Shown here: positions 1-28,249 of the stretch, in pieces | Position numbering within the stretch: position 1 is the stretch's first letter | Layout of the letters: each line of letters begins with the position of its first letter | Assembly: GCA_051362555.1 (NCBI GenBank) | Contig: CM120647.1 | Span: forward strand, 10,433,378 to 10,497,377 | Direction of reading: 5' to 3' | Length of the DNA: 64,000 nt | DNA from: Lingula anatina | Taxonomy: Eukaryota; Animalia; Brachiopoda | Made by a program: the position numbers and the translations under genes | Notes under the pieces: model-generated | Database searches by the model: none | Told to the model about the DNA's origin: nothing | Seen by the model: the letters and a program-made list of their open reading frames with translations, nothing else

Positions 1-635
1 TCACTTTCCCTAACGCTGAAAACATGGGCGTGGGCACTTCATATGTCATGTTTGCTTGCCTAGTTAACATAAAAGCAGTTCTGGAGGCAGGTTCTAACTA
101 TCAGCAGATTGACTTGTGTTTGACAGATACAGGGAAGAAACAATAGAAGATGCTACTCGGACAAGATTCACAAAGTCATTGCTACCCATAAGACAAGACA
201 TCTGATTTATCACATTCCCTGACCCTGAGAACATAGGTGTAGACACTTCATTTGTCATGTTTGCTTGCCTAGTTATAGAGATACAGAAGTAAAACAGTTT
301 TTCAGCAATGGCGATCCTAATTTGCATATTTAGGAAAATTGCGTAAGTCTAATTCTAACAGAAACATCTTAATAATGTTCCTCGACCCTGAAAATATAGG
401 TAAAGACACTTCATTTGTCATGTTCACCTGTCTAGTCCCAGAGATATTGCAGAAAATAGGAAATCTGGCGGCCATTTTGTTTTTTTGCAAATTAGACCGT
501 TAAAAACGCAAAATTTCGCTTGGGAACCGGGTAAATCGGATTCAGCATCCCAAAATTATGCTAATAAGCCTGGTTCCCAACTTTTACCCCAAAATGCCCC
601 TACTATTCATCTTTTGTGGAAATCCCACTAGACTA
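1..635. mobile_element. End of a non-autonomous DNA transposon-like repeat with three diverged internal repeats (possibly Academ-like terminus)
   Basis: Three related blocks 'ccctgaaaacataggt...cacttcatttgtcatgttt..cctagt' at ~10, ~215 and ~380. Also tggcggccattttg and a terminus ...cactagacta (reverse complement TAGTCTAGTG). The superfamily is a guess. Confidence 0.45.
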
Positions 636-638
636 TAA

Positions 639-892
639 GACCTCATTCCCATAGAAAACATCAGTCTACATGGGTTGACCCAATGCTGCAGGAATTCTCG
701 CAGATTGCAGTCATGTTAACAGATTAACATGCATTGCCCTGGTGTTAAATAGAATACAGAGAAACTGGTGGTTATACAGGTACATTGGAAACAAATGAGG
801 CGTGTCATTCAATTAAGCTGATTGCACTTGAGAGCCCCGGCACAGTTATGTTGATCTACGAAGACTGATGGTGTGTCTTTGAGAATGGGGTT
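639..892. mobile_element. MITE, PIF/Harbinger-like
   Basis: Imperfect TIR gacctcattccc ... gagaatggggtt flanked by TAA/TTAA. Internal sequence resembles the older hairpin element around 31420-31810. Confidence 0.55.
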
Positions 893-1471
893 TTAAGTTC
901 TTTTGCTTCAAGGTTGAAATGCACAGACTGAGTACGTACTAGTATGTGTGAGGTAATTGGGATAAAGGACAGAGGATAAAATACCTGACAACTTCTTTAC
1001 CTGGTACTACAAGGCCAGTAAAGTGGTTTCTTTTGCCATTTCAAGGTTGAAATGCACAGGCAGCGCACAAACATACAATGTGCGTGTATACACATTCATA
1101 TATCAGGGATGAGATTTTTCTGACTTTTGGCAGATTTCTTACTTTTTGGGAGCCAAAAATAAAGAAAAAATTAAAATAAAAAATGAAAATAAAATAAGCA
1201 GATTTCTGGCTTTTTGAAAGTCAATATTACCATTAGCCTGGACGTCCCCTGGCCCCCATGCCGTATTTTTCTAGCTTTTTCGCTAAATGGCAGCCTTATC
1301 TTGGTATATTCAAAAACACCTTGCAAAGTTTGGTAATAGTGGGACACATCCCCCCCCCCTTTCCCGTCCTGCCAGCAGATGGTGCCACTGGTCAAGATAC
1401 ACCCACCACCACAACTGAACAAGACGAATGCACATTTCCTGTGAATACATTGTCCATTCATTCCATTCCAG

Positions 1472-2860
1472 TCAAATCCCTCCCCATTCACTGCGTGGTA
1501 GAGCACATCCAGAGCCCGGTGCCACCAGACGGCGCTGCTGCCCAAGACGCACCTGACACCACCATTGAACAAGATGGATATGCCATCCTGGCCAGTAACA
1601 CTCCCTTCCATGACATTGTGGTGACGGCACTGCTCAAACTGGGCTACAATTCACTGGACGCAATGTCTGCTAAAGGTGGGTAGAGACAGGAGATCACTGG
1701 CACCTACTAGTAGAGGTAGTTCTGACATTTATTTATTAAAAATATCATTGAATTTCTTATTTTGATGTTTCGTTTTCACTTATCCTTTTGACATTTTTAT
1801 ATTGATTAAAAAGTTAAAAATATATTGATGAATTACAATACGTATATAAATAGATAAATAAATGAATAGATGAATAAATTAGTTTATTTATTTATTTATT
1901 TTTTATTTTATTTTATTTTTTTTTTTTTTTGTTCAGCCAAATCACTGATTTTACTGTTACAGTACATCAATTGCATAATTTGCAAGCATGCATAAATTTT
2001 AAAGAAAAAGTTAATTTTTTTGTTTAAGTGAATACTTTATATGTCATACATTTTGATATGATTATGATGTATAAAGGGTACCTATTGTACTGATTTTGTG
2101 AGGAAAAAAAAAGATGAGAAAAGAAACTGGCTATTTCTATATAAGATAAATAAGCCAAATCTGTCTCATCATTAATTGACTTACTACACAGTCAGTTGTT
2201 GTACGGTAGGGATGAGGTGGTGGTTTATTGGGTATGATTGATTATTGACGGAACAAAGGGCTCATTGTGAGGGGGCTGTGAGAGACCATGATGGCGTGAC
2301 AGAGTTTTTGTCAATACGGTGACTTTCATAAAGGTGGAATGATAATAAGTGTGTATTAGCACAGGGGATTGGGGGGGGGGGGGGCTGGGAGGGGGGAAGG
2401 GAGAGGTAATAATATTAATTAAAAATCAATCAAGTTTATTCAATTTTTTACAATTTTACAATTTTATTTATACAATTTTATTGTGTATAAAATTGTATTA
2501 TGAAATGCACATAAAACGGAAATTGTTTTACCATCTGGGTTGTAAGGAAGATGAAAATATAATAGAAATAAAAGAATACCAGCAGAAATTAAAATAAAGA
2601 ATAAGAGTCATTGCTGAAATTACAATGTTTTGCTATTAAAAAGAGATGTAACGGTTGGGTAAAAGCTTTTGGATAAAAATGTTTGCTTTTTCTGTATTTA
2701 GGTGTTGTCGTTGTCAGTTGTATAAGTGTATTTGTAAGAGTTAGATAAAAATGCTGGTGAATTGTTTGTATTTATTTATTTATTTTCTTGAGCTGAAATT
2801 GAATAAGTGGGGCAAGAAAGCTACTGATTCAGAAAGATGTTATAGGAAATATTATCATAT

Positions 2861-2919
<59 letters not shown>

Positions 2920-4422
2920 TAAATATAAAGTATTAGCATCTTGTATTTTCTTTCTTTCTTTCTTTCTTTCTTTATTTATTTATTTATTCTTTAATAACAT
3001 TAACAAAAAGTACCACAAATTTTTCCATAGCATTAAAGTTCACCTGTCAGCTCTGATCTCTTGACTATTGGCAAGGACATCCATCTCCTTTGATAATGTC
3101 ACACAAATTGCAGCGTCATGTCACTTGGTGTGACACTGTGTGAATTGGCGGCAGTGTCGGGCTGATGTGAACCTGGGATTACCCCTTGTCCTACTCCTTT
3201 CCTATTACCTAAGTTTCGTACATGGCCTTTTTACCCCCCCCTTACTTTGTCTACTGTGACCTCTCCTTGTCGTCTAACAAGTGACATTTGCTATATTAGA
3301 TGTAGCAAGCTATCATTTGGGAGCTTTTTTCATTGAATCTCAACTGAGTGTGGCTTTAACCAAGTCAATGCCTTTGGTTTATTGGTTGTAATGATCACTT
3401 TTATGGGAGTGAAGCAATTTAAAGAACAAAGACCAGTGGCAGTTCATAGGCTTTGAGGTGGCTTTGGATGAGGTCAGATATGGTATATTATTATTGTTTT
3501 TTTATTACTGCAGGGGTGTTTTATTTGTGTTTATACTTTTTAAATGGTATGTGAGAGGGTATTCAGTATAAAATACATTACTTTTAGAGAACATGAAAAT
3601 GACAGAAATATGTCAAGCAGGCAGATATACTCTGCTTTCCTCTTTACTCTTTATTTACCTTTATAATTTTTTAAAAAATGAATTTTAATTTTATTTATAG
3701 TGTAAAAGTAAGTTAAAAAATGTACCAGTAAAAAACAGGTTGAAGCCAAAGCTAATATGTAGATCACCTTAACCCTGGGTTTGTTGTCACAAAGCATCTG
3801 CTTTTCACAGGTAAATTATTGAAAGCCTCTTCAGTACAATTTCAATATCATCAATTAACCCCCCTTCCTGGGTGTCCTGTATATTATTCGTTCTCCCAAA
3901 CCTGTCTGGCAGGTTAAGTCAGATCTGGGAACTGATACAGACTCAACGATGGACCTAATCACAGACTTAATGACGGAGTTCCCCAAAGTTGATCAGATCT
4001 CTAGATTACAATCCAGGTGACAGAATGGGTGAGTTAGTTTGTGGATAATCCCTCAGCTCTACCTCTGTGTGTTTGTCTCACCTGGCTTTCAGTAAGACAG
4101 GAAGATGTAAATGGGCTGGACTCGTCTTAATTTTATCAATTTGGGAACAGCAGGGGGGTTGGGGAGGAGGAGGTGCCACCTGAGTTTTCTGTCTTAAATC
4201 TCAACCTCTTCTTTCTTCTAAGTAGAATGTTGTAACAAACTGTTTTTAGCAGCTGGATTGGCTTATTGTCTTTCTTCACTTTTCCCCACTTTGATGCATT
4301 TCATAATTATCAGAAAAACATGACATTTTTTTCCCTCTTTTTCTCCAGATTATCATATAAGGCATGTGCAGCATTATATCATGTGTTTGGGCATAAAGAC
4401 AACCTCTCTCTCTCTCTCTCTC

Positions 4423-4453
<31 letters not shown>

Positions 4454-7400
4454 GATTTTATTCTTGCAATACTGAAACAAAGTGAATAAACAAACATACC
4501 GCAACAACAACATAAACATGTTTTTGTTACCTCCCCTCCAATCAAAACTCAAAATATAAAAAAATATATTGAATTGCCTAAGGTATGATTGTACATTTAA
4601 CAAGAAACTTGGACTGATGCCCTTATTGAAAAAAAAATGTGACACTTAAACATACATGTTAATTACCACAGGAAAGGAGCAATTTGAATTTCATTTGAAT
4701 TTCATTAATTTGCAAAATAAGTGTAAGTAATAGTAAACTTCCTGTCTCATTCTGTTGAAAAAAATAAACAGGATATACCTGTATCAACAGCTATAATTAT
4801 GCTAATTGGAATGTTGGCATACTGGGGAAAGGTGAGTAGTGATTTTCCAGATTATCCAGATTAGAAACTTGATTAGGAGGGTGGTGATGATAAAGATGCC
4901 ATTTCTGAAAATTCAGTTAATTGAATTGATCAGTAGTGTTTGAAATACAATTTTATAAATCAGAAAAAAAGTATTTACAAGTTGGGATAAATAAACAATA
5001 TTTTACCCCTTGGCTAAAACAGAAATATTTCAAAAGTTCAAAAAACAGGTTTATTGAAGTTGTTTACTTCAATTGAGGTACATCCTTATTGCTGTGCAGA
5101 AGGAGATGGCTCTGTTACCTGGAGTTTAGAATGATATATTTAGTATATTGAACTTAACCATATGCTTTGGAAGAGAGCTTTGTAGGTGACTGATTACCGT
5201 GTTACAAAAGTCTTCAACTTTCTGATGAGTTAGTGACAGACTTAATTGATGTTTTTCATTCCAAAATCTTTATTTAATTGCTTGTCAGGAAGTTCAGGTG
5301 TCATTGTCTTTAGTTTAAATACTTGGAGGACACCTGGGCCTTCTGTTGATTTATTTATAACATGAGACTCAAGTGGCAGATTCGGTGTTATTGTTTTGAT
5401 TATTTACACAACGATGGCCATATGACCAATCTGTTGATTATGCTCATTTTTCAGGTAGGGTCTTCGCCGACTATTAATGCTTTGTTCAGAGATGACCAAT
5501 GTTACAGATTTGTTTGTCACACTGGTTTACTGATATCACATTAGATGACGTAACACTTTGTGTGCAGATGAGCATGTTACTGATTTGTTTGGCATGCAAT
5601 TTTTAACTACTTATCTCCTCATCATTATACAGATGCCAGGGCCTAAATGTAAGCTTGTGTTTTGTGATCTACTGCATGCTTTTATTGACAAGTAAACATA
5701 ATCATCATAATTATGCATTATCAGGGCCACAAGGAGTTGGGTAAGGGCCCTGGTGCTGCAGATGGACAGTGACAGGTAGCTAGATGATTTACCTGGATTA
5801 GTGGAAAGGGGACACCCTCTTGCACACTGGTGTGAGTGAAAAATCTTCTGGACACTGGAATGTAAACTCTTAGCACAGAAAAAAAATCTATGGCCTTGGA
5901 AAAGGGATGTGTAAAATTAAGTTGTGAATAGATTTTTCACATTTGGAAATGTACAGAATTTAAAAAAAATGCTGCGATACAAAAAAAGCCATTTTTGATA
6001 GGCAGATTGAAACACACATGAAATAGTCAATAAAATAATGCATGAGAAGGAACAAACAGTACAATAAAAATATCTTATCAAGCCATTGTGCTTCTATTCA
6101 GTTTCAAGAAAACTCTGGGTTAAAAACCCAAAACCATATTATAACTCTAATATAATGTGTCCAGGTCCCCTCTGTGGAAGAGGATAATAGATACAAGATA
6201 ACTCCCAGATGTTGGACAAGGTATTTAAGATCAAAGAGATATGGGAACAAAACTCTAACCACCCACCTCCAGCAGGGGGGGAGGGGGAGGAGGGGGACTT
6301 GCTAACAATAGGAGGAATTCCCCAGCTCAGGTAGATAATAGGTATAATATCCTGGTCAGTGGAAAATGACCAGTGTCCTGGGGAGGACTTAATCTGCCTA
6401 TTGGACAGTAAGGGGATGAAGGTAGTGGCCTTAATTACATTGTTGGTGTAATTATTGGACTTGTGCTGAAGAAGTGGCATTGTTGTGTTTTGATTGTGGC
6501 TGGAGACTGGTTGATTAGAAGACACTGCGTTTTATATTGAGGGCTCAGAACCAGTGGATGTCTTCAGAGTGAGAAGATGAACAGTTCAGTTCTCTGTTAG
6601 GTTCTTTAGGATTCTGCTTCGTAGATTACTAGGTTGGACTGAACATTGAGGAATTGATAAGGTGAGTTTTTGTCAGGGATTGTACTGGACAGGTATAGAA
6701 AGATGGCTTGGTGTATGTGTATCTATTTATTTGAGTACTGACGAAGAAAAAAAGTTAGATAGGTGTGAAATTATTTTAAATAAGGGTCAAATATGGAAAA
6801 TACTTTTAAAAAATCTTGTTGGGGTGTTTTAGTGTTTTCATACACGGAAATATTTTCATGACACAAAAAAATAATTATATGACTTATATGTCCAGTAGGG
6901 ACAGTAGTTTTTAAGATAAACTGCGATTTCCCATTATCTTCAAGTAGATATATAGGATGTGAACCTTTGCTGGTGATTGATAATAAGTAGACTAACGTAC
7001 AAATTCAAAACACCAGTAGAAATCCATAAGATTTTGTCCCTTGCATGCATGTCTTCATTTATCGTCTTTTTGATGAGATAGGGTCAAATTGATAGTTGAA
7101 ATTTATGCTGTATAATGGTAAGAAATGTTGCTTTTGCAGGGAAGTTATCTGTTCTTTGTCAATTAAGATGAGTGATCAGTGCTTGTAGTCAGTGTAGCAT
7201 GATCCACATAGTAAAAGAGGGTTGTGTTCATAGGGTTAATGTCCAGGAAAAAGTTCAAATAGTAAATTTAATAGTCACCTTTAAGAAGTACGAGTTTTTA
7301 AAAGTTGAAATAAATCTGAAAAATGAAAGAAAATATCCATAGGTGGTACTGCCAAACCCAATGTAAGGGGAAAGATATATTTAAAGACCACATATGAAAA

Positions 7401-8637
7401 AGATACTTCAATTGTGAAAAAAAAAAATGTTAAATTTTTGTGTTTCTCAACTTGTATGTAAATGTTAAGATTCACTGCCAAAGGTACTGGGCATACCTTT
7501 TCTTATTGAAGTCCACTAAAAATGAGTTGTCCCTGGTACAAAATGAAGAGTTTTAACATGGTGACCTATGACTGAACCAGAGAATGACATGAGCCTATCA
7601 TTTACCTGGGGAATACATAGCTCACCTAAAGTGTAGACAGGTCATTTTTTCACAAAACAATAGGATGGGTTTTACTTAAGTGTTGTAAGCTTAATCTTCA
7701 TGTGTTGATGTGTGTTTACAGTGAAGATAGGCCAGTTTAAACCAAGCTTGACACATCTATTTTGCAGTCTGTGTGGCCATTGTAAAGATACACATTGTAA
7801 ATAATTTATATAATTAAAAAATAAAGAATTTTGCTTTAAAACTAAAAGAGGTGGCTATAAGCCCCTAGGTCTCAGTTGTTTAGTCATCTTTGTCAAAATT
7901 ATGATTAAAACTCAAACAGCAATATAAGGACATACATAGGATTGTTTCACTGGAGTTACCAATACAATAGAATACCTGCAAATTCATATCAACCAATCAT
8001 GTAGATAAACCAGTCAAGCTGTTAAGGAGGTCAAAGTTGGCATTTTCTCCAGGTGATAAGGATGCAAATGACTTAATCTGTTGTTAATCAATGATCAGGC
8101 AATTAACTTGATGACATCCACAGTGTCAAACAGACAGGTGACACATGTCAGTCATTATCTGGACACCTGACAGTTTTACTGGGGACAGCTTGAATGTCTG
8201 ATGAACCCTATAAAAGAGAGGACTTCTCTGAGATCTGGTCATTACCAGCTCAGCAGTGGAGAAGTAAGGGTCACAGAGACAGCTCTCTATGTTTTAATGT
8301 GTATTGAATTATAATGTGTGTTTGCCTTGCAGGTGATACTTGCATCTAGACTGAGACTTTCAGATAATTTAAGTCATATTACTTTTTAAGTGTTTCAGAC
8401 TCCATTAGGCAACAGGGATTGTGCAAAGTCCCATATTTTTTGGAATTATTATTGTTTTTTTTTTTATAATGAATTTTTAATTGATATTTAACAATGTTTT
8501 ATTATTTCAGGTGCTATTCAGATCAAGAACTGGAAGCCTCTGGCGTTTGATACTATAACTGAGAACAAGGAGGCCACCATAGACCAGATTCTGGGGGAAC
8601 TGACCAACATAGCCACACTGAGGATTAAAATCTCAAG
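1472..8637 (+). CDS. Compass/SATB-family homeobox gene: shared exons encoding the ubiquitin-like (ULD/COMPASS) domain
   Basis: Exon 1472-1675 (ttccag|..KSLPIHCVVEH...YAIL..TPFHDIVVTALLKLGY...AK G|gtgggt) and exon 8511-8637 (ttcag|GAIQIKNWKPLAFDTITENKEATIDQILGELTNIATLRIKIS AG|gtagg). Phases match. The motifs are those of the SATB/dve ULD. The upstream start exon was not identified. Confidence 0.9.
2859..2990. repeat. (TTTA)n and (TTTC)n microsatellites
   Basis: Direct reading. Similar tracts occur at 9612-9693 (TTTA/TTA), 4404-4452 and 21470-21533 (CT), with poly-T at 47626-47678. Confidence 0.95.
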
Positions 8638-9438
8638 GTAGGAACAGTACTATGTTATCTATGGATAGGGATAGGTTTTTTCATACCAGAGTTTCAGAGA
8701 CTAAGGGAAACTTTTTCACCCAAAACTGTGACAGGTTGTGAAAAGTGAGGACCATAAGGAAATACTGGCAACTTGAGTATGTAGGCTGTCAGAAACACAT
8801 ATGACTCAGTTTACCAACTAAAGATTATTGCTTGAAATTGTTTTCTCAGTCCCTCTCCAACGGTTACCTGCTTTAGAAACCAAAAGTTTCCCTATCATAA
8901 TTGTTTCACCACAAGACAGTAAGAAACTTTTTAAGTCAAAGAAAAAAGAGTGGTATCTCTTTTACTTCAAGCCATAAGCATTTGTGTTTTATTCATGCTT
9001 TTTGCGCATAGTGTCAAGTGGGTTAAACTTAGTTTATTACCCCCTTCTAGTGCCAACTATGGTAATGAATGGCACTGGGATATCTTGTTAATAATCTGAA
9101 TATTTTCATCTATTAAGGGTTCATTTTTCCCTTTCTGTAACATGATAGGATGTTTTTTTTTTCTGAGATTAATTTTGGTTAATGGTGATTTCAATCAAAA
9201 GCAATCATTTATACCATCAAGTTGGTGCTCTTCATATCTTGACGTGTGCTCCCACCCTCCCGATTGTTACATGCTTGAAATATAAAATTGTGTATCAAGG
9301 CAGTTACTGGTTTGATGAATATTTACTATTGGACCACATTTATCCTACTATCATCGTCAACTGAAGCAACATTGCACGATTCAGGAGAGTAAGATGCTTT
9401 ATCCGGTCGGCCATTTTGAGTTCCCTTCCTACTTTCAG

Positions 9439-9612
9439 TACTGACAACACCCCGTGTAACCCGTCCTCTTCCTCGCCCTCCTCCTCCTTGTCATCAACAA
9501 CATCATCACCAGACATCCAGGACAAGCTGCTCCGGTTGTTGTTGTCATACTCTCAGGAATTGCTGCTGTCTTCTGGATGTCCACTTGATAAGGTAGACTA
9601 CTTCAGAAATCT

Positions 9613-9694
<82 letters not shown>

Positions 9695-12336
9695 TTGCAT
9701 TCATATCAATCAGGTGTCAGTTTCTGATGTATCTGATAAGATCAGACATTGTTTTATAGACTTTTTTTTAATCTTGGTATAGTTTTTTTTTTTTTATTTA
9801 AGCATGCAACTATTACATGTACAGCTAAAGACCTGCACGTAGCAAATGTTTACACAACACAATTTTTTGAAGAAATTTTCTGACATTTTATTAGTCCAAA
9901 ATTTGTGCAGTGTTTTTGGTAAAAGCTGTTCAGAGTTAATTTTAATTTCTTTAACTTTATAATTGTTTTTCTGTCAATCACATAGAATTTACCTTGACAT
10001 TGCAGGACATCCTGTCACAGATTTCTCAGGGACAGATCATCACGGACTCCGTCATCTCTCCCACCATGAAGGAGGACTTCTATAGATGGTATCAAGACCA
10101 GCTTCAGAGCAGGGCCTTCTCTGTTCTGGCATCGCTGAACCAAGACGGCACGGAATCTCAGAGAAAAACCATGATGTTTCTTCAGCAGCAAGTGCCCCCA
10201 GCAGGTGGCACCACAGAACAGCCACTAGGTGTCTCTACCGTACAGACAAGAGGGACTTACCTTCCCCCGCACCCATCTATGACCCAAGCCCAGATTGGGG
10301 AGCCAAACCAGCAAGTGTCTTTCCCACCCAACAACGGACATCATCACCTCACACTTCACAGGTCGCCACCAGCTGGCAGCACTGCAGATGACGCCCAAGA
10401 CATGACCTCACCCAATTCTTTTGTTGGGAGTGCCGGAAAATCACGCCCAAGGATGCGAGTCAACTTTGACCCACACTATGAAGTTCCCAGGCTTCTATAC
10501 TGGTTTAATATCAACGATCACCCAAACCGTACTCAGATGGAGGCTTACGTGGCTGAACTCAATTCTCTCCCTACGAGATATGGAAAGAGGCCCCTGGATG
10601 TCACCAACATTATGTACTGGTTCAAGAATCTGCGTGCTGCGCGGCGTAGGATTGCACGTACAGAAGACAGCCTCAATGCACTCAGTGACTCCAGTGACAA
10701 ACTCAACTACAACTCAAAAGAACACCTCAGGTGTCTCCCTCCTCAGATGGGTTCTACAGAAAGACTCTCACCAGCTCATCCCAGTGCAGTCCATCCACTC
10801 TCTATTACCTCACGACCAGTCCACCTAGGAAGAACCTCGCCTCAGCAGGTCACCCAACCCATGGGTCTCTCCCACTCCATTGCCTCCATAGTAAACAGTC
10901 CCAAGGATGAAAAGCTTGGCTCGCAGTCCAATTCTCCCAGGTTGGAGAACAGTTACGTGTCCAATTCTAGTCACGAAGAAGATGATGATGAGGAAATAGA
11001 TGTTGAAGATGATAGTGAGGATGAAAGTCCACTACGTATTGTGATTGACCAAAATGAGGATATGCTTGATGATGAATCTGCAAAAACTGACTCAGCTTGT
11101 CTTGAAGCTTCAAGCAATAAAGGTGCTCCCTCTGTTGAGGAAAAAACTGTGACAACCCATGGTCAACCCACGTCCAACAATCACTGTCAAGGCGAAACAA
11201 GTTATGCTTTGGAGAAAAACTATAATTCCCAACCAAATGAAGTAGAAGTGACAAGCTCAGCGGAACCTCAGGAAGAACCAGTAGACTTCTCTTTGACAAA
11301 ACGTAGCTCGGAGGACAGGATCCCAAGGGCAGCCAGTGTATACAGCTCCAGTAACTCGCGCCCAAGTTCTGTCGCCTCCAGTGTGGGAAGCAGATCATTG
11401 TCATATGAGCTTCAGCCTGAACCAGCTCACAAGAAAATCAAAATGGAGGATGGTACATCTTGGAGTGCACACAGAGGCTTACCTCATCACCAGTTCCCAA
11501 GGTCATTCTCAAGGTCAAGTTCAAGGTCTCCTACTGGGTCAAGTTCAAGGTCAGCTTCCCCATTGGAGAATGTTAAAGGGGCCACCTCTTCATTCAGCCC
11601 TTCAGTCACTGGAGTATTTGGATTTAATGGACAGATCAAACAGGAGAAAGTGAAGGATTACAGTACTGGGTTATACCCCCCTAGTTCTGCACAGTCCCCC
11701 TTGGCCCCAGGGTATCAGGGTGTTCCACCCCTTGTGTTTCCGAATGGTAAGCTACCACATGGTATGTTTGGTGGTGCACAGATTCCATCTCCTCTGACCC
11801 TGAGCTCTCTCCAGCAGCACCAGCAACAGCAGGCAGTGCTGCCGCCTATTGGTTTCAATCCATACTTCAACCCCTACTTCGTGCAGGCCCAACAGAGTGG
11901 TGGAATGGGCAACGGATTGCTGATGATACAGCCCAAGTCTGGTTCCTCGTCACCGGCAACTTCTCCTTTTGCCACCTCACCTGGAAGTGGACACGGTCCG
12001 AGCTACGCCAGATCTGACCCTGACCATGAAATTACCACCTCTCCAACAGTGACCACCGAGAAGAGACAACGCACAAGGGTCTTCATTGATCCCATCACTG
12101 AAATCCCCAGACTTGAGTCCTGGTTCCTCTTGGACACGCATCCCTCTATGTACGAGATGGAGAAGTACTGTGACATTCTGAACTCTTCTGAGTATCGACA
12201 GAAATTTCCCAAATTGAATGTGCGCAATGTTCAGCTGTGGTTCAAGAATCACCGCGCCAAAGTGAAGCGTTTGAAGGGTGCTGACGTGAGAATCGCTATG
12301 GCCTACGAGATGGCAGAGGCTAAGATGATGTGCTAA
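9439..12336 (+). CDS. Alternative 3' module A: Compass/dve-type CUT-like domain plus two homeodomains
   Basis: Exon 9439-9592 (phase-2 entry; KLLRLLLSYSQELLLSSGCPLDK|) and exon 10006-12336 (ttgcag|DILSQISQG...FYRWY). HD1 RMRVNFDP...YWFKNLRA at ~10444-10650; HD2 RTRVFIDP...LWFKNHRA at ~12064-12270. Stop at 12336. Confidence 0.9.
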
Positions 12337-13751
12337 TACTGTGACAGTTTGTGGTATAATAATTCAGACCAATGGAAAAATTTAATTAAAATAAGCAATA
12401 TTCTATATGTATGTTAACAAATGAAGAGGTTATATTTATAATATAAGTTGAGACCAATCAAGTGTATTAGGGCCAAAATGTAGAACTAACATATTGAGGT
12501 GTGATATTATTATGAGGACGATAAATGCTGTATTTCCTCATTTGTATAGCTTATTGACAATGTTTTCAGTGCTTTCTGCAGAAGAATACATGAGATGAAA
12601 AGAGAAACTAGAAGTTTTTCAATGTTTTTATCATAGACCAACCATTGAAAGAATTTGTATTTATTTATTTATTTTCACTCAAAACTGACAGCAATATAGT
12701 AGTTAGCTTATGACGTAAGTGGACCCAGTCCACACACTAGTTTATAGTTTAGCATGAAGTAAAGTGTAGAACTTAGATGTTTGATAAAGATGACTAGAGA
12801 TGTTGTCTGTTGAGAAGTTGACATGTGATGTTAGCTTGATGGAGTATAACATGTATATTTGTACATTATTTGGATAACTTGTGTACTAAGTAGTTAGTAG
12901 ATATACACATTGATTTACATCTCACAGTTTATAGATACGTTAGGCTGTTATTAAGTAACCCAAAGTCTAGTCTGGTAGATGCACACAGTAAATTTTCATT
13001 TCATTAAGTTTCCAAGAGATATTTCTAGATATGCTAGACTGTTATTAAATAACCCAATCAGTGTCTAGTTCATGCTCTCCGAGGTTACTGAGAAGACCAT
13101 TCTCCTTTGCTGTTTTGCCATTGTGTAACATATCTTTACAGTATTTTGTTCCCATTTCAATATTTTCTGTAGTGGATGAGTACTGTGGTGCTTACCGGAA
13201 TGTAAATATATTTTTTTTTGCCATTATACTTAAGGTAGTATAAGGAGATGTGGCCTGTGATGAGAAAATGTGGTGATGTGAGTTGATATTAGCTGTTTCT
13301 TCAACTAGCTTGACTCAACAGGATTCAGATTTAAATGTTTTTAATTGTAGTATTAATTCATAAGCAGTTTGTGTTAATTTTGACATCATGATATTCTAAG
13401 TACTTAATAAGACAAAGCTCCTTATTTTCATACTTTGCTAACTGCCAGTGATTTTTTAATCTAACAGATAGACCATGGTGGCATATTGTAATTGTTTGAC
13501 AAGTAAAAAAGACTTCTTTCTTTCTTTTCCTTATTCTGGATATTGTATTTTTCATCAGGGTTTCGCAAACACTAGTCATTATTTTTGTGTTTTTGAGCAA
13601 AAAGTCAAAAGATTACCCAACACATGTCATGGTGCATTAAATGATTCTATTATATTGAACTTAATAAATATATTTTGTGTGTATGTATATTTGATAGCCA
13701 TAATAAAGCCATATTTTGTGGTACAGGGTATTTTTGTATAACAATCGATGG

Positions 13752-13757
13752 AATAAA
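13752..13757 (+). terminator. Probable polyadenylation signal of module A
   Basis: AATAAA followed by a T/GT-rich tract (tacttctttgtttgt), ~1.4 kb after the stop. A second AATAAA lies near 13702. Confidence 0.45.
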
Positions 13758-15341
13758 GATCTTTACATTTTACTTCTTTGTTTGTAATTTTATGCACATT
13801 TTATCAAACTTGAGAGGAAGTCTTAACAATTATAAAAATATTTATTGATAATTTGATGTCAGGTCAGCCGGTCCAAATTGAGCAAACGCTGAACAAAATA
13901 CTTGATTTACTGAAAAAAATTATGGTATTGACTCAATCTTCTCAATGGGTAAAACTGAATTTTACAGATACTGTATTTTTCAAGCCATCATTCTTAAAAT
14001 AAGAGCATTCCTATTGAGTGGTTGCAACAAAATTAAAAAGCAGACTACCTTGTAGTTCTATTCCATGCATTAAAAGCACTACAAATGCTATTCAAAAATA
14101 TAATTTTTATGATTTTGAAATCTTGATGTATCTGAAAGCTTGATATTTTTTGCCCATTCAAAAGATAAAGACATTACCGTAATTGATGACCCCAGCATGT
14201 CATGATCATGTCCACCCTGATAATACAGAGCACAGAGGTAGAGTGGGCCTTGAATCAGGTGTCCATATACAACACTTAAAACAGATTCAATATCCAAACC
14301 AATTTCAAATTAAGTTGATAACCTGTATTTTATGATAAAGTGCTGAGCATATAGAAGCAGTATCCAACAGTGGATATTTAAAAAGTATATTGCAGTGAAC
14401 ACAGGAAGCAGTGACCAATAGGAAGTTATATTAAAAAAAATTAATTGTCCTACAGTAAGGGCATAATTTGAAGTTGCTCAGTCACAGACTATCATGATCC
14501 ACACAATTCTGGAATGTTCATCATCTGCCATATTGCCAAAATGTACCTGAAAGCCCTGTGGCTTGTCATTAATTTTTGATTCACTCTCCCAATGCAGACA
14601 AGAGTCTGGTGAATTTAACTTATGAAAAGTTTTTCCTCTGTATAAAGGACCAGTCCATATTCCATTACTGCCCAGTTTTTGACAAACTACTCACATACCG
14701 AAGACATTCGATGTTTCTGGACTACATTATTCTTATATATATATTAACTCCTCATTACAAGTGCCAAGCATTTTGTTTAACATGCAATATTTTTTTTCAT
14801 GTCAAACACAGTCTCACAGTGCAACAAAAGTATCAACATTTGTAAAGAAAAAGCAGAAAATTTTATAAAAAAGAAGTGAAAAATATTGCCTGGATGCTTA
14901 AGATTTATATTCTAATTAACCCAAGCAAGTAAAAATGTTGATCTGACGTTTGATTATCAGTGAATTTTCTCTGGTGAGAGGGGGGCACTGAAATGGTTTT
15001 ATGTAACTTTTTATTCATGGTAATGATGTCACCAATTGGGGAATTGTAAATAGGTTGAAAGCCTATAAAGAAGCATTGGACAGTGTGATTATGCTTTTAT
15101 GGATAATTGTTTTACATATATTATTATTATTATTTATTCATTTATTCATTCATTCTTTTATTCATCCATCCACCTATCTGTTTATTCATTCATTCATCCA
15201 TCATACCTGTTTATTTACGTATTCTTTCTTTCTTTCTTTTTTCTATATTCATTCATTTATTCATTTATTTATTTTTTTATTCATTTGTTTCTTTCTTTCT
15301 TTCTTTATCCATCTGTTTATGTATTTATTTATTATCTGCAG

Positions 15342-16948
15342 GGGTTCCCCTCTCTCCTCCAGAGCAGTGTGGACAAGCCAGCTGGTGAAGAGGATGGTGC
15401 TCGACTTACTGAAGGAGATGAACCAGCCAACTCTGGCCAAACTCTCAGGGCTCTCACAGGTAAAATAATAATAAAATAAAAGGAAAGAAATGGATTCAAA
15501 TCCTGTGTGATTAAATCAGTCCTCCCCAAGTGTAAAAATGCCATATCGGATCTTCTTGTGGAGGATACATCATACATGTTAAAATTTATAGTTTGACATT
15601 GTTTTTGTTTGCAAATGAAGTGGATGCGAACAAAAGGGAAAGATTATGATGACTATTTTCAGAAAAGTGATTCTTGTATGAATTCCATAGCTGACAGGAA
15701 TAAGAAGGTTTTTTTACAAAAATACTTCTAAGACATGTGACTTTGATAATTAATTGCATGCTTTGGAACTCATCCTCAATCATTCATCCACATCTTTAAA
15801 TTATTAGATATATTTGTTATTTTTATTTAAACTCTGAGTTAAAATGAAAACTAACATTCACTGTCAGCATTAAAGGGAAATGATGGAGGCATGCTGATAA
15901 TGAAAGTTTCAATATTATTCCTGTGTAGCTCAGGGTAACTTTAAGTGACCCTAGTAAACTGAAAAAAGTATGTGTTTGTAAACTCCATCCAGTGTGTTCC
16001 ACATATAAATAAGACGGTTCTCTCCATTTCAGTCCATGATCAGCAACATAGCAAATGACAAATACAAGGCAATAATCACCTCCGAGACCTGTAAGGAGTT
16101 TGGGGAGTGGTATATCAAGTACAAGACTGAGGAGAGAGGTAAAGACCTAAATTTTAAGCTTTTTATTGATTTCCTAAACTGATTTTCAATTGTAAACACT
16201 TGTAAGGAATTAACATTGATAAAATGAACTTGTTCTAATTTCTATTTATTTAAAAAAAATAAAATAAAATAAAATCAGCTGGTAGGGTCTGCAATAGAAA
16301 AATGTTAAAAGTAACTGCTTCAAAAACATTTTTTTAACATCTTTATTCTCAAGAAGGTTAAATATTGTTGCAGTATAATTGAAGGTGGCAATTCGCCTAG
16401 GCATTACATGCTCACCTTAAATATGGTCAGATGAACCACAAGTTACTTATTTCCTTGTAAATTATCACCGTATTTGTAAATAAGACACTCAGTGAAATCA
16501 AGACTGAAAATATATGTGGGGATTGTATTGTACTTGTTGTTATTTTTACTTACAACTTGCAGTAAAATCTTTTGCAAGTCCAGAAAAAGGAGGAAATGTC
16601 ACACCATCATCACGACTCACCTTTCACCCAAAGTATGAGCTCCCCCTACTGAGAGGCTGGTTCCAGAAGACAAAGACCCCCAGCGAACCTCTACTCATAC
16701 ATTATGTTAATGAGCTGAACAGAGGTCATGTAAGGCAAGAAAGGCCAAAGGTCACACTCGATAAACTCAAAATTTGGTGGAAAAATGAGAGACAGAAGGA
16801 GAGGAAGCAGAGAGTGAAAGAAAAGGAGGCGTTGAACCAAAGTAACTCAGGAGAGACTAGGGAGGAATCAACGGGTGGACCTCAACTGACTCAATTAGGC
16901 CTTGATGAAGGGCCATTTGAAAGGGTTTACCAGTATCCAGATACATGA
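15342..16948 (+). CDS. Alternative 3' module B: SATB-type CUTL domain plus one divergent homeodomain
   Basis: Exons 15342-15459 (phase-2 entry; WTSQLVKRMVLDLLKEMNQPTLAKLSGLSQ|), 16033-16138 (SMISNIANDKYKAIITSETCKEFGEWYIKYK) and 16563-16948 (SRLTFHPKYELPLLRGWF...KLKIWWKNERQKERK). All introns are GT-AG and in phase. Confidence 0.85.
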
Positions 16949-18403: not shown

Positions 18404-19987
18404 TTAAGTATCTGACATTCCACCTCCAGAAAATATACTGGCTAAGAAAGACTTATTCAATCCAGCTTTTTTCTTTGGGTCCCCTTTGAGTTTCCTTTCT
18501 TTCTTTTTCTGTCTTAAAGCAACTGGACCTTTCAGTTGGCCCTCGCTGGTCTCGAGTTTTGATTTCTTGGAAAGGATTTCGTCCTCTGTGTCTTTTTGAG
18601 TGAATTCCCACTTCCTCACCTGTCCTTTCATCTTCTGTGCTTTTTCCAGGCGTTTAAATTTGTCACCCTTTTCAACATTCTGCACGTAAAAGTTGGCCTC
18701 CTTTTTCACTTGTGCAATCTCTGTCCTCATCCTCTGCCTGTGAACCTCCTTTTCATAAGCCAATCTTTCATTCAGATGAACCCACTTGAATTTGGGAAGA
18801 TATTTAATGTTCCATATTTCATCATGCCACCTTGATCTTCTTTTTCCACCAATCTGAAATTAGTAAAGCCTTTCAATGGCCTAATTTTAAAAGATTTGCA
18901 GTTTAATAACCATAGGACTAATTCAAATATATTCATTTTAAATAAATTGCTAAAATAAGCCAGTTTATATCAAGAACAGGCGTCAGGTACTCTAACACAG
19001 GTGAGTCATTATTACCCAAGGCAGGAATTTTCCCAGGATAGGGGGTACAGGCTGTCCAATATTACCACCTATAATTTCCTACAAAATTTCAGGGAGTACA
19101 AGTACGCCTAAAGCCACCATATTTCCAAAAAATCTGTCCGTTTTTGAAAATAGAGGTCAACTGGTGATGCTGGCGGCCGTCCAAATGACAGCTGGGCCCC
19201 ATAACTCACATGCATCACACATTGCAACCGAGCGCAAGAATCTCAATTCCATAACTCGCCCATACTTGTTCCATATAATACATTGTAGCCTCTATGTGAT
19301 ATTGCTATTTGCCTTATGCGATGGTTCGCTGGGAAAAGCTTTGTCCCAAGGACAAGTATGTGACATGTGTGGAAGGGGCTTTACCTGTGTGTTGTTAAGA
19401 GAAAGTGCAACTCTCTTTGCAATCCTTTTGTCTGCAAACTCCAGCCATCCCTCGGTAAATAATCTGGCCTTTTTGCCTTTTGGGGTTCTCTCTGGAAAAC
19501 AAAACAAAAGCCTGTGCATATAAATCTATGACTTCCTAAAATGAATTTCAGATATTTATATATCAAACAGACTGCAACAAGGAGTTTAAACAGAAACTCC
19601 TTGACTGCAATAACAAAAGCATCATGAAATATGACTGTATTTCAATCAATTACCAAACCATAAATATCTCCTTAAAAACTTATGTCAAAGTTTAAAAACA
19701 CCTCTTTTTTAATTGCAACGAGTAAGATTAAGAGACAAGTAAACCTTGAGGCAAAATGCAGTGAGATTCTTACGGTCTGGTTGTAAGAAAATCCGTCCAA
19801 TTTCCCCAAACTGTTCGAAAATTTGTCGCACTTTCTTCACACTCATGTACGGTGGTATTCTGCTAAAGTAGATAATTCCAGCCTCTCGTTCTTTCTTCTC
19901 CAATTTAGCCAGTTTCAATTTGTTTTCCACTTGTTCATCCACTTGCTCATTTAGGAGTAATTCTGGATCGTCGCACGTGTCGTCCAT
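18404..19987 (-). CDS. ABT1: Activator of basal transcription 1 / pre-rRNA processing factor Esf2 (RRM)
   Basis: Exons 19987-19774 (M...GIIYFSRIPPYMSVKKVRQIFEQFGEIGRIFLQPD), 19491-19385 (FTEGWLEFADKRIAKRVALSLNNTQ) and 18853-18404 (IGGKRRSRWHDEIWNIKYLPKFKW..LNERLAYEK...RMRTEIAQVKKEANFY). Phases are consistent. Confidence 0.93.
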
Positions 19988-20328
19988 GTTTACTAAACGA
20001 GATCTCGAGTTACTTGTGCGAGATGTAGAAGTTTTGCTGCTTTTTTCTGCTGGTTCTAGGAATTGAAATGCCACAATAATTTCCTTGCGAGTTACTTATA
20101 CCTGTAAAAATAAATCAAAACAATCATGCCTTAATTGATTCTGTTGATAGCATTAAATGAAGCAACTAGTTCAGATCATACATCATGTGACTGTTCAAAA
20201 TGGAGGATGAATGTTTACACGTCGACTGCTGCATGCTTTTTTTGTCTATACGGGTACTTATGCAAAACGCATGATTTCCTATGTAACGAGTTATTTAGTC
20301 CTGGTAAAACAAATCTTTTCCTCTTAAA
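19988..20328. promoter_or_regulatory. Bidirectional promoter region between ABT1 and KHK
   Basis: The two divergent ATGs are only ~340 bp apart, and CpG content is locally elevated relative to the flanks. Confidence 0.6.
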
Positions 20329-21535: not shown

Positions 21536-24500
21536 ACACACAAACACACAACAAAGTCAGGAATACGGGAATAAAGTTTGAGTAAAAGTATTTTGCAGCT
21601 GTTGGAAGCTAGCCGTAGTAGAATTAAAATTTGTTTAGCAAAGCATTTGTGTAAAGTTAATTATGCTGAACTGAGTGAAAGCATAGGCTAAAGCAGACTA
21701 CTGCAATTTTGGATTCTGATTTCAAATTTATCTCTAGCTGAACAGAACAATTCATTTACAAATGAAAATTTTCTGTCAAAAATAAAGAACAGAGATATCA
21801 GGAGATCATCAATTAATGCTTTTATTTTTTCCTTTTTTTTAGGTTTTTAAAAGAAGATTTTGCCAAATATGCTGTAAACATTGAGAACTGTGTCTACCTG
21901 GACGACTGCACCGCTCCAGTGTCTAACTGCATTATCAATGTACAAAATGGATCAAGAACCATCCTACACAGCAACAAGTACAGTAATTACTCAATCTTTT
22001 CTATGCAGTAAAAGCACCACAGAAATGCTTTATAGAAATATAGTTTTGTGATTATAAAATTATGTATCTGAAAGTTTGATAATTTTTGTCCATTGAAAAC
22101 ACCGAGTCATTACCATAGGAATTCATGGCATACTATACAGACAGGTTTAGTGGTGGTGGGGATTTGCCAACAATTTATTTGCCTTACGCCTGACTGTTTT
22201 GTGCAATTTGCATATTTTTTTCAAAAAAAAAATTTTTTTTCAAATTTTTTTGCTTGAATAATGGTATTTTACCTTCTAGGAGCTTGCCTGAGTTTTCCTA
22301 CAAAGACTTCCAGAAGATTGATCTTAAAAAGCAAAAATACCAGTGGGTCCATTTTGAGGTAAAACTTTGAATAGAAAAGAAATAAAATAGTTTTTCTTTT
22401 CATCAGATTATTTATTATTCAGTAAAAAGTCATTAATAGTTTGTTTGTATTTATTACATGGTGATATATAAACTTTAATAGAGTGTCATCATCATCATCA
22501 TTGCTCTTCGTCCCGCGTGGGACATAAGGCCACAGTCACTTCTTTCCATTTGGCCCTGTCTCTGGCTACGTGCTGGGCCTGTCCCCATGTAAGGTCCCCC
22601 TCCCTCAGCTCTGCCATTATTGTTCGGCGCCAGGTGGTCTTGGGCCTTCCTCTCTTTCTTTTTCCGGGTGGTGTCCATCTCAGAGCTACCTTTGGTACTC
22701 TGTTCTCGTCCATCCTAAGTACATGGCCGAGCCATTTAAATCGCCGTCGCTTGATCTGCCCTACAATACTCTGGCTCCCTGTCAGTATGTACAGGTCATG
22801 ATTGGAGATCTTATTTGGCCAGAATATGCGGCAGATCCTGCGGAGACACCTGTTATGGAAGGACTCTACTCTGCTCATGTCAGACTTTGTAAATAGAGTG
22901 TGGTTATGGTAAAAACTTGAAAATTTCATCATTTAAATATTGATTAATATTTTTAATTGCATGAGTCTTACATGGCCATATTAGGTGATGAACCTTTCAA
23001 AAGTATCGAGAGGGCCATTTTCAAGTTTTACTGAATTTTCAAATTGAAAAAAAAATTCATCAACAGAGAATCGCCTTCCCACAATATTTCCAAGAATTAC
23101 TACAATTTACGCAAGTCTGATGTGCCTCCTTCCTACCCAGGGTCGCCCCAATGTCCCAGATATTTCTAGTATGCTTCAAGCCATAGACAGCCATAATAAG
23201 GCACATCCAGATGAGAAAATAATTACTTCAGTGGAGCTAGAGAAGACCAGGATGGAAATAGGTGAGACAATTCTGGATTTGTTTGTCTTAAACAGGAAAT
23301 TAAATAAGTTTTCCATAAATATGGCAATTTTTGGACAGGAGAAGAGCAGGATAGAAATTGGTGACATTAATTTAGCCTGTTAATCTTCAACAGCTAGTGA
23401 AAAATTATGTGACAGATAAGACAGGCATTTTGTTAAATATGACACTTATTGGCAGGCAGTGTGTTAGAAGTTTTGACATACAGAGAACATCTATACATTG
23501 TGTTAGATGTGACATGATAGCAATACATTCAGTGTGTTAGATGTGACATGATAGCAATACATTCAGTGTGTTAGATGTGACATGATAGCAATACATTCAG
23601 TGTGTTAGATGTGGCATATGATAGCAATGCAATCAGTGTGTTAGATGTGGCATATGATAGCAATGCAATCAGTGTGTTAGATGTGACATGGTAGCAATGC
23701 ATTCAGTGTGTTAGATGTGACATGGTAGCAATGCATTCAGTGTGTTAGATGTGACATGGTAGCAATACATTCAGTGTGTTAGATGTGACATATGATAGCA
23801 ATGTATTCAGTGTATTAGATGTGGCATATGGTAGCAATACATTCAGTGTGTTAGATGTGACATGGTAGCAATACATTCAGTGTGTTAGATGTGACATGGA
23901 AGCAATGCATTCAGTGTGTTAGATGTGACATGGTAGCAATACATTCAGTGTGTTAGATGTGACATATGACAGCAATGTATTCAGTGTATTAGATGTGGCA
24001 TATGGTAGCAATACATTCAGTGTGTTAGATGTGACATGGTAGCAATGCACTCTGTGTTTTACAACATGACATATGATAACGATGGATTCAGTGTGTTATT
24101 TGTGATGCCTCTAATTTTGTACATGTTTAAATTAACTATTTTATTTTCTTCCAATGTTTCAGTACCTCTCTTAGATAAAGCAGATTATGTATTTGTGAGC
24201 AAGGAGCATGCTCAGATTCATGGTTACCAGTGTAAAGAAGACACTGTGGAGGGATTGGGCACAAAAATAAGAGACAGGTACAACACAAGGCCTCTCCACT
24301 ACATCTCCTTCCTCCAACGTGTTCAACCCTCTCCTCACCCCCAACCCCTCTCTTCCAACCTCTCTCTCCTCCACCCCTCAAATCCAACCCCTTTCCAAAT
24401 TTAAGTGACAGAATGTGCAATTAATCTTATATGGATTCACCTTATTTCATTCATTAACCATACTCTTGTTATTATTTGTGTGTACGTGTTTGGGAGGGGG

Positions 24501-24879
24501 ACTTGTTTTTTGATTTCATAGATTACCCTACAATTCATTCATTTTCAAGTATAAATTTGCTAAATTACCTAAGTTAAATTGATTTTGTAAATTAATTGGT
24601 TATTTTTTCTTGTTCATCAGCTCAGTGATAATTTGTGCCTGGGGGGAGAGTGGCGCTTGTGCCAAACCTAAACATGGACCAATAGTGGCATCTCCAATTT
24701 TTCCACCAGAGGGCGGTGTGGTAGACACTCTAGGTGCTGGCGACTCATTCAACGCTGGCGTCATATTTGCCCTGAGTAGGGGGAAAATGTTACAAGAAGC
24801 TGTGTCATTTGGGTGCCTAGTTGCTGGAAAAAAGTGTGGATTTCGTGGATTTGAAGGTCTGAAAGGTTTTCCTCTTTGA
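20329..24879 (+). CDS. KHK: Ketohexokinase (PfkB family), 7 coding exons
   Basis: Exons 20329-20435, 21329-21445 (WQRGGNASNTSTVLALLG), 21843-21977 (NGSRTILH), 22280-22358 (YQWVHFE), 23141-23261 (GR...SVELEK), 24163-24277 (ADYVFVSKEHA) and 24621-24879 (CAWGESGA...VVDTLGAGDSFNAG). All GT-AG and in phase. Confidence 0.95.
22487..22891 (-). mobile_element. 5'-truncated non-LTR retrotransposon (RTE-like 3' end) in KHK intron 4
   Basis: Encodes FHNRCLRRI...RRFKWLGHVLRM...PGKRKRGRPKTTWRRT...DRAKW. It has a (GAT)n tail and a 10-bp TSD aatagagtgt at 22477-22486 and 22892-22901. Confidence 0.85.
23499..24055. repeat. Minisatellite, ~16 copies of a 34/36-bp unit, in KHK intron 5
   Basis: Unit tgtgttagatgtgacat(at)g[ga]tagcaat[ag]cattcag repeated head-to-tail with no unique spacers. 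Confidence 0.95.
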
Positions 24880-27683: not shown

Positions 27684-27918
27684 GGGACCATTCCCACAGA
27701 TATTTGGATCGATCTATCTCCCTGGGGAGTCTCACTAAATTTTTGTCAACTTGACCAGCTTAAATGTCTGTCATGCCTAGTAAAGCTGTTTGGGGATAGT
27801 TATCTTTATCCCCTAGCTGATTGGGTAGGCGTGACAGACATTTAAACCGGTTATTTGATAGCAATTTAGTGAGACTCCCATGGGAGTTAGATCGATCTCT
27901 AGGCATGGGAACCCACTC
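27684..27918. mobile_element. PIF/Harbinger-type MITE overlapping the stop codon of the HELZ2-like fusion ORF
   Basis: TTA duplications at 27681-27683 and 27919-27921. Carries the family's gatcgatcta/ggggagtctcac inverted blocks seen at 31518, 36354, 46779 and 59889. Confidence 0.8.
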
Positions 27919-28249
27919 TTAGAATGTGCTGTGGTGAATGCGGATAAAAAAATTGATGTAGTTCAGCTTCTCTCACTTTCAGTTTATTTGCACAATCAGA
28001 AAGGTTTTCATCTAGTAGTGCTTTACGTAAAGTAGAATATGGACGTTTGTCCATTTCTGCCTTCAAAATAACATTTAACAGTTTCCTGTTTGCCTCAGTC
28101 ATTGGCCCATTAAATTGATCTTCTTCATAATGTTCTATCATCCCAGCGGCCACCAAATGGTTCCTCATCATTTCTGGGTTCATTGTACAAATCAAATAAC
28201 GAAAACTACTTATAATTTTCAACTTCTCAAGCTTATATCGGCATGCTTC
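27899..28249 (-). CDS. Terminal exon: CARD-like death-fold domain
   Basis: KLKIISSFRYLICTMNPEMMRNHLVAAGMIEHYEEDQF...ANRKLLNVILK...PYSTLRKALLDENLSDCANKL follows the typical CARD six-helix pattern (L..L..HL...G.I...E; N..LL..I; Y..L..AL; A..L). Confidence 0.6.
   Translation of the reverse strand, partial: EACRYKLEKLKIISSFRYLICTMNPEMMRNHLVAAGMIEHYEEDQFNGPMTEANRKLLNVILKAEMDKRPYSTLRKALLDENLSDCANKLKVREAELHQFFYPHSPQHILRVGSHA

Follow-up and report, generated by a model that had tools for sequence, protein, structure and literature searches.

An alternatively tailed Compass locus in the brachiopod Lingula anatina and the probable source of the ULD-CUTL half of SATB

Can one locus encode both a Compass/dve-type and a SATB-type protein? 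The question is raised by a Compass gene on the + strand of a 64,000-nt stretch of DNA of the brachiopod Lingula anatina (the window, whose coordinates are used throughout). A first-pass annotation, made from the letters of the sequence, had proposed that one ULD domain is followed there by mutually exclusive 3' modules, called tails A and B here. Indeed, both tails are spliced to the same ULD exon, and the ULD-CUTL half of vertebrate SATB probably goes back to tail B. The parts of the locus are as follows.

1377 to 1675, + strand: shared coding exon that encodes the ULD/Compass domain over its first two thirds (Pfam ULD positions 1-68), ending in phase 1
8511 to 8637, + strand: last shared exon with the end of the ULD (Pfam ULD positions 71-109); junction reads lead from its phase-2 donor to both tails
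9439 to 9592, + strand: tail A exon 1, first half of a degenerate CUT-like domain (profile match of 35 bits, homologous to the B and SATB CUTLs), with junction reads
10006 to 12337, + strand: tail A exon 2, rest of the CUT-like domain, two Compass homeodomains (about 10450-10650 and 12070-12270; two Pfam homeodomain stretches) and the stop
12338 to 13770, + strand: tail A 3' untranslated region, with AATAAA at 13663, 13702 and 13752 and a putative cleavage site placed by the fall in read depth
15342 to 15459, + strand: tail B exon 1, first half of a SATB-like CUTL, with ULD-to-B reads in runs X4, X5 and X7
16033 to 16138, + strand: tail B exon 2, second half of the CUTL (Pfam CUTL, 37.9 bits), ending in phase 1 at a place that is an exon boundary in SATB2 too
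16563 to 16948, + strand: tail B exon 3, one W48 Compass-type homeodomain with a 10-residue insertion, and the stop, with 26 junction reads

The 5' limit of the first exon is a guess (candidate acceptors lie at 1376 and 1379); its end at 1675 was joined to 8511 by reads in X5 and X7. The true first coding exon is probably upstream of the window, and the N-terminal motif of the relatives was not matched in the three + frames of positions 1-8500. A six-frame profile scan of the whole window (2064 stop-to-stop pieces) revealed a single ULD (1480-1677 plus 8507-8632), two CUTL-type units and three homeodomains (10450, 12070 and 16610), so that module B, as had been claimed, has no ULD of its own. 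Pfam placed the ULD (PF16534) on the two shared exons, whereas tail B gave a CUTL match and tail A matches to the homeodomain in two stretches; the ULD-then-CUTL product of tail B matched PF16557 with 63 bits (cutoff, 25). Neither the A exons nor the B product matched the CUT domain (PF02376).

From the donor AG/gt after 8637, the acceptors ag/T at 9439 and ag/G at 15342 both restore an open frame with one stop, giving models of 1009 residues (A) and 384 residues (B), counted from a provisional Met at 1258; all of the coordinates first proposed were right. With the alternative donors 1679 and 8638 the frames closed (13 to 55 stops). The homologous point of the CUTL carries a phase-0 intron in both tails (9592/10006 in A and 15459/16033 in B), again as read at first, and tail A has no intron after its CUTL.

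Six of nine raw-read runs from the same species were aligned, and the junctions of 8400-9600 were compared in X2, X4, X5 and X7. The junction from 8637 to 9439 was carried by 839 reads in X1, 636 in X2 and 3 in X5; it was not among the joints listed for X4 and X7. The junction from 8637 to 15342 was found as loose read ends matching 15343-15372 in three of the four runs and in two studies (4 reads in X4, 5 in X5 and 3 in X7). It was absent among the joints listed for X2 and among those listed for X1, where two joints near repeats were dropped. Since junction reads to A and to B are present, both isoforms exist, and one bulk sample, X5, contains both. Farther downstream, X1 had 297 reads for 9592 to 10006 and 26 for 16138 to 16563, on the strand expected of a + transcript; the joint 15459 to 16033 was not among the X1 joints listed, with both exons covered and joined in the public model P0160. 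Usage of A and B differed strongly from sample to sample: in X1, A was about a hundredfold above B (839 junction reads, with the first B exon covered to a depth of 6-7), and in X4, X5 and X7, B was at least equal to A at low depth. In X1 the depth dropped from 283 to 1.4 between 12.3 and 14.2 kb, and A coverage ended near the AATAAA sites at 13.66-13.75 kb; therefore, the tails seem to behave as alternative last-exon blocks. A and B are almost certainly alternative tails of one gene.

Two internal first exons, mapped by loose read ends, were heavily used in X1 and X2.

6630 to 6661, + strand: 3' end of an internal first exon with donor 6661, closed in frame; 5' end unmapped
8191 to 8263, + strand: second internal first exon with donor 8263 and an in-frame Met; it would yield a truncated ULD

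Loose ends from the former preceded 8509 in 199 reads of X1 (agreement 0.84) and 133 of X2 (0.79); those from the latter preceded 8511 in 89 and 79 reads, respectively. Because the exon ending at 6661 is closed in frame, an A transcript starting there would encode a 756-residue protein with both homeodomains and neither ULD nor CUTL; the exon ending at 8263 would give an 893-residue form. Also, a Ser-rich insertion between the ULD and the A CUTL (9445-9510) is polymorphic among reads, and ambulacrarian A tails likewise have a long low-complexity linker at this place.

The alternative-tail mechanism is already known. Cavalieri, Melfi, and Spinelli (2013; PMC3784565) described a Cmp/Cmpl locus in sea urchins and Saccoglossus, in which exons e5-6 (CMP, two homeodomains) are mutually exclusive with e7-9 (CMPl, one homeodomain), and called this layout exclusive to ambulacrarians. 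In the sea urchin, the sns5 insulator is bound by CMPl, not by CMP; binding and the need of CMPl for enhancer blocking were shown only in Paracentrotus (PMC3784565). The Lingula B homeodomain groups with those of Amphiura and Ptychodera (100/99) in a tree that does not contain sea urchin CMPl itself, and it departs from the published definition of CMPl in the length of its insertion (10 residues) and in being outside the ambulacrarians. Tail B is thus likely the orthologous tail of CMPl, not CMPl as defined. The tail A product, with an N-terminal CMP/ULD, two homeodomains with a 10-residue insertion and no CUT domain, is of the COMPASS/dve type, which bears out the initial reading. In reviews, the CMP domain is the sole tie of COMPASS to the CUT class (PMC10515288, PMC4901127). 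The CUTL profiles of A and B are homologous (hhalign probability, 95.6).

How old are the twin tails? Over the spliced part, the Lingula B tail is 100% identical to P0160, a RefSeq protein of Lingula anatina whose annotation assigns it to a gene of its own (LOC106167793). Named matches with a B tail came from bivalves, gastropods, Helobdella, Tubulanus (a nemertean; homeodomains only), Tachypleus, Limulus, Trichonephila, Uloborus, Rhipicephalus, Hyalomma, Nymphon and Amphiura. Among the named matches listed there was no insect, nematode, amphioxus or tunicate; many listed matches carry no species name, so that absence from these groups is not established. The search for the same arrangement in other bilaterians, which had been suggested at the outset, thus yielded B tails in molluscs, a leech, a nemertean and chelicerates, next to the sea urchins and the hemichordate in which the layout had been described before (PMC3784565). 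Comparison of 37 A-tailed with 41 B-tailed proteins that have a ULD gave 18 of 1517 pairs with an identity of at least 0.9, all from different species: ticks (0.99; 16 pairs), freshwater mussels (0.96) and scallops (0.94). The tick, mussel and scallop pairs each switch tail at the same residue as Lingula. In Ptychodera and Anneissia, gene models are fused, A then B. Oyster Cmp1 and Cmp2 have been listed as two genes (Paps et al. 2015, PMC5322547); we found that Cmp1 has an A-type second homeodomain and Cmp2 a B-type homeodomain, in the consecutive gene models CGI_10015221/10015220.

All 16 B homeodomains formed one clade (100/99), all 23 B CUTLs stood on one side of a branch in 98% of the bootstrap trees, and the B and A homeodomain profiles matched each other (hhalign, 99.2-99.3). 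The B clade spans lophotrochozoans, with a 10-residue homeodomain insertion, and chelicerates and ambulacrarians, with 11 residues. Because B tails occur in protostomes and ambulacrarians and nearly identical ULDs occur with either tail, one internal duplication of the CUTL-homeodomain block very probably preceded the protostome-deuterostome split and was present in the bilaterian ancestor; the ancient intragenic duplication postulated from the window is thereby supported.

Some relatives have features of their own. A gene model of Nymphon striatum (P0047/P0046) has two tandem B modules, which possibly amount to a third alternative tail. The B-tailed proteins of horseshoe crabs and spiders (P0017, P0018, P0039-P0041, P0202) have ULDs at best 0.64-0.68 identical to the A-tailed ULDs compared, and all isoforms listed for the horseshoe crab locus are of B type; here the tails may be split between duplicated genes. 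Ptychodera and Anneissia (P0161, P0177) have a degenerate third homeodomain between the second A homeodomain and tail B. The cnidarian Xenia (P0310/P0256) has a Compass-like protein with a CUTL (32.9 bits) and two inserted homeodomains; a Nematostella survey counted no COMPASS gene (PMC1779571).

Is tail B related to SATB? An oyster-cluster B protein aligned to the solved SATB1 ULD-CUTL over 176 residues with a nearly equal linker (E, 1e-35). SATB CUTLs scored 85-88 bits on the B profile and 15-18 on the A profile, and they were 42-60% identical to the 23 B domains and 13-35% identical to 22 A domains; the Lingula B CUTL was 48-52% identical to that of SATB1/SATB2. In the CUTL tree rooted on Xenia, which omits the first copy of P0190 (a duplicated partial) and two SATB2 rows identical in the domain, SATB and B grouped together with 96/93 (50 rows); with 25 of the 50 rows, the values were 94/99 and 97/99. 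Twelve states are common to SATB and B and absent from ambulacrarian A and Xenia; SATB and A share one. Furthermore, a one-residue deletion in the CUTL is present in 23 of 23 B and 4 of 4 SATB domains, in none of the 22 A domains and not in Xenia. Exon boundaries point the same way: splice variants of human SATB2 place boundaries at c.346 (PMC10320656) and c.598 (PMC5548934; c.597/598), and vertebrate isoform models point to a break behind residue 233, with 11 insertions at 233-235 and 2 read-throughs in 112 proteins. Placed on a 733-residue SATB2, all three boundaries agree in phase with those of the Lingula B form and lie within one codon of them, and the boundary after the CUTL (residue 233) has no counterpart in Lingula tail A. 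We therefore consider it quite probable that the CUTL of SATB derives from tail B.

The homeodomain tells a different story. The first-pass annotation had B as a SATB-type module to which vertebrates added CUT domains, and it called for trees of both domains. The CUTL link held, and the CUTL tree joins SATB to B, but the homeodomain of SATB has no detectable profile similarity to that of B (hhalign probability, 0.5; 0.2-1.1 against the B and A profiles overall). In the homeodomain tree, from which the degenerate third Ptychodera A homeodomain was omitted, SATB is on a saturated branch of length 10 and could not be placed (P = 0.37 for SATB with B in the approximately unbiased [AU] test). Since the SATB homeodomain has F48, has no Compass insertion and has no profile match to B or A, SATB is not B plus CUT domains. 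SATB is likely made of the ULD-CUTL exons of B and a foreign CUT-CUT-homeodomain block, joined at the phase-1 intron after the CUTL, the homeodomain exon having likely been swapped out in the vertebrate lineage. This refines the Cmp-Onecut shuffling model for the origin of SATB (Takatori and Saiga 2008, as cited in PMC3784565 and PMC11788884). The residues of the SATB1 tetramer named in PMC3784565 are altered in the Lingula ULD alignment, as in ambulacrarians, and hetero-oligomers of the A and B isoforms are a guess. Leads from the ESM Atlas (HNF1/HMBOX, ONECUT and POU, below 0.9 by features; dve clusters with a template modeling score of about 0.5) were not used.

Could the data be explained otherwise? 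As annotated (LOC106167793 and oyster "Cmp2"), module B would be a separate, ULD-less gene with its own promoter. In Lingula, Mytilus, Pinctada, Saccostrea, Crassostrea and Rhipicephalus, public B models do open with a first exon of their own, and the reads reach the 5' side of exon 15342 only indirectly, but the ULD-to-B reads, the assembled ULD-CUTL-homeodomain transcripts in the oyster and tick clusters and the fact that the private first residues differ among species make this very improbable; an own promoter as the only mode of B expression is refuted. Separate local duplications of the CUTL-homeodomain block in the different phyla are just as improbable. The block does duplicate repeatedly, as in the Nymphon model, and the two cnidarian homeodomains group together; the insertion length of B also varies among phyla. 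The single clade of all B homeodomains and the common branch of the B CUTLs, together with an exon number and order equal in sea urchin and Lingula, largely refute it.

A more serious, though unlikely, alternative accepts the twin tails as real and old and takes SATB from tail A or from a copy that predates the A/B split, so that the likeness to B would be a retained ancestral CUTL from which A diverged. The Xenia CUTL is equally close to SATB (31-35% identity) and B (mean, 29%) and lies above the Pfam CUTL cutoff; ambulacrarian A is nearer to SATB than protostome A is (hhalign, 97.7 versus 94.7); and a placement of SATB with A was not rejected in five of six AU tests. Against this stand 12-16 SATB-B states absent from the outgroup versus 1, the common deletion, identity ranges to B and to A that do not overlap, a SATB-B branch starred in three trees and the intron after the CUTL, found in B and SATB2 but not in Lingula A.

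The derivation of SATB from tail B also has points against it. The CUTL comparison covers 65 columns only, and in AU tests a grouping of SATB with all A was never rejected (P = 0.27, 0.20 and 0.10); one with ambulacrarian A was rejected under a simpler model (P = 0.040) but not otherwise (P = 0.079 and 0.15). SATB is sister to all B in the best CUTL trees, not nested with deuterostome B, the nested placement being not rejected (P = 0.46 and 0.22). The root is a single cnidarian, Xenia, with a marginal ULD match of 3.8 bits, and 4-8 of the states shared by SATB and B occur in it too, so that the likeness is partly ancestral. A SATB2 boundary at c.473 would match the switch donor; published sources for boundaries at c.473 and c.700 were not found. 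As for the locus itself, the B junction counts are low (3-5 reads per run), and protostome A/B pairs outside Lingula rest on different species or on gene numbering, not on one genome with reads. A B tail of amphioxus or tunicates is missing among the named matches listed, and chordates are said to be without the CMPl tail (PMC3784565).

Taken together, we favor, as probable, a Compass locus in which a shared ULD is spliced to tail A (dve type) or tail B (CMPl type, whose CUTL is well conserved), which arose by one internal duplication before the protostome-deuterostome split and of which tail B gave rise to the ULD-CUTL half of SATB. If the near acceptor at 9439 is used, the RNA would end at A's own poly(A) region near 13.7 kb; if it is skipped, the transcript would reach tail B. 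Both products would be regulators that bind DNA; they would share the oligomerization-type domain and differ in the domains that read DNA. The vertebrate lineage would have lost tail A and, at the phase-1 intron after the B CUTL, exchanged the homeodomain exon for the CUT-CUT-homeodomain block of another CUT-class gene. With somewhat less assurance, we suggest that the protostome-deuterostome ancestor had one gene that made a dve-type and a proto-SATB protein via alternative last exons, that vertebrates kept the B ULD-CUTL exons and swapped in the CUT-CUT-homeodomain block at one phase-1 intron, and that fly dve and worm DVE-1 are the other branch.

The finding in Lingula contradicts the literature, in which the Cmp/Cmpl locus is described as confined to echinoderms and hemichordates and as a character that unites them. 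What is new is a B tail in a lineage said to be without it and good but not conclusive evidence for the source of the front half of SATB; a specific donor and a specific intron can be named for the long-proposed domain shuffle. A literature search revealed no report of a B tail as a protostome isoform or of a tie between the CMPl CUTL and SATB; paywalled articles (Takatori and Saiga 2008 and Burglin and Cassata 2002 among them) and the supplements of PMC3784565 were outside its scope. Fly dve has been stated to be the SATB1 orthologue (PMC11032433); this would have to be qualified, the locus being orthologous and the DNA-binding tail likely another one. If our reading is true, the living invertebrate counterparts of the SATB ULD-CUTL unit are to be found in molluscs, annelids, brachiopods, chelicerates and echinoderms as misannotated B isoforms, and one of these isoforms has been proven to be an insulator protein; the role of SATB as a chromatin organizer would thereby be linked to the insulator function of sea urchin CMPl. 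The annotation error recurs: B tails are either listed as genes of their own that lack a ULD or appended to A in one model.

The rest of the window holds other genes. An RRM protein (18404-20095, - strand; weak Pfam RRM match) resembles ABT1/Esf2, and a short frame at 22498-22932 (- strand), with no Pfam match at an E value of 0.01, is one we take to resemble the end of a reverse transcriptase of a long interspersed nuclear element. A PfkB kinase (24583-24879, + strand), a ZU5 protein (27899-31319, - strand) and a HELZ2-like helicase with an RNB domain (36632-58989, - strand) follow.

How does the locus compare with known systems? Like the tail A product, the COMPASS family (Drosophila dve, C. 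elegans dve-1, amphioxus Compass) has a ULD, two homeodomains with a 10-residue insertion and no CUT domain; the family descriptions in the reviews list no CUT-like domain, whereas A tails carry a degenerate one and the Lingula locus adds a second tail. SATB1/SATB2 share with the tail B product a ULD directly followed by a CUTL, similar spacing and matching exon boundaries; they differ in having two CUT domains and an F48 homeodomain without the Compass insertion, neither of which is in tail B. Oyster Cmp1 and Cmp2 are not tied to CMPl, alternative splicing or SATB where they are listed (PMC5322547). A term search of the main text of PMC3784565 found no CUT-like domain named and CMPl not tied to SATB through one. 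The closest counterpart is the Cmp/Cmpl locus described there: it shares with Lingula the Compass/ULD front, a pair of CMP exons that lies upstream of three CMPl exons and is never combined with them, two homeodomains in one form versus a single W48 homeodomain in the other, separate variation of the two forms and a short isoform of similar length (396 residues there, about 384 in Lingula). The insertion in the B homeodomain has 10 residues in Lingula and 11 in CMPl, as also in chelicerates, and the paper excludes protostomes, whereas Lingula is a protostome with that very layout.

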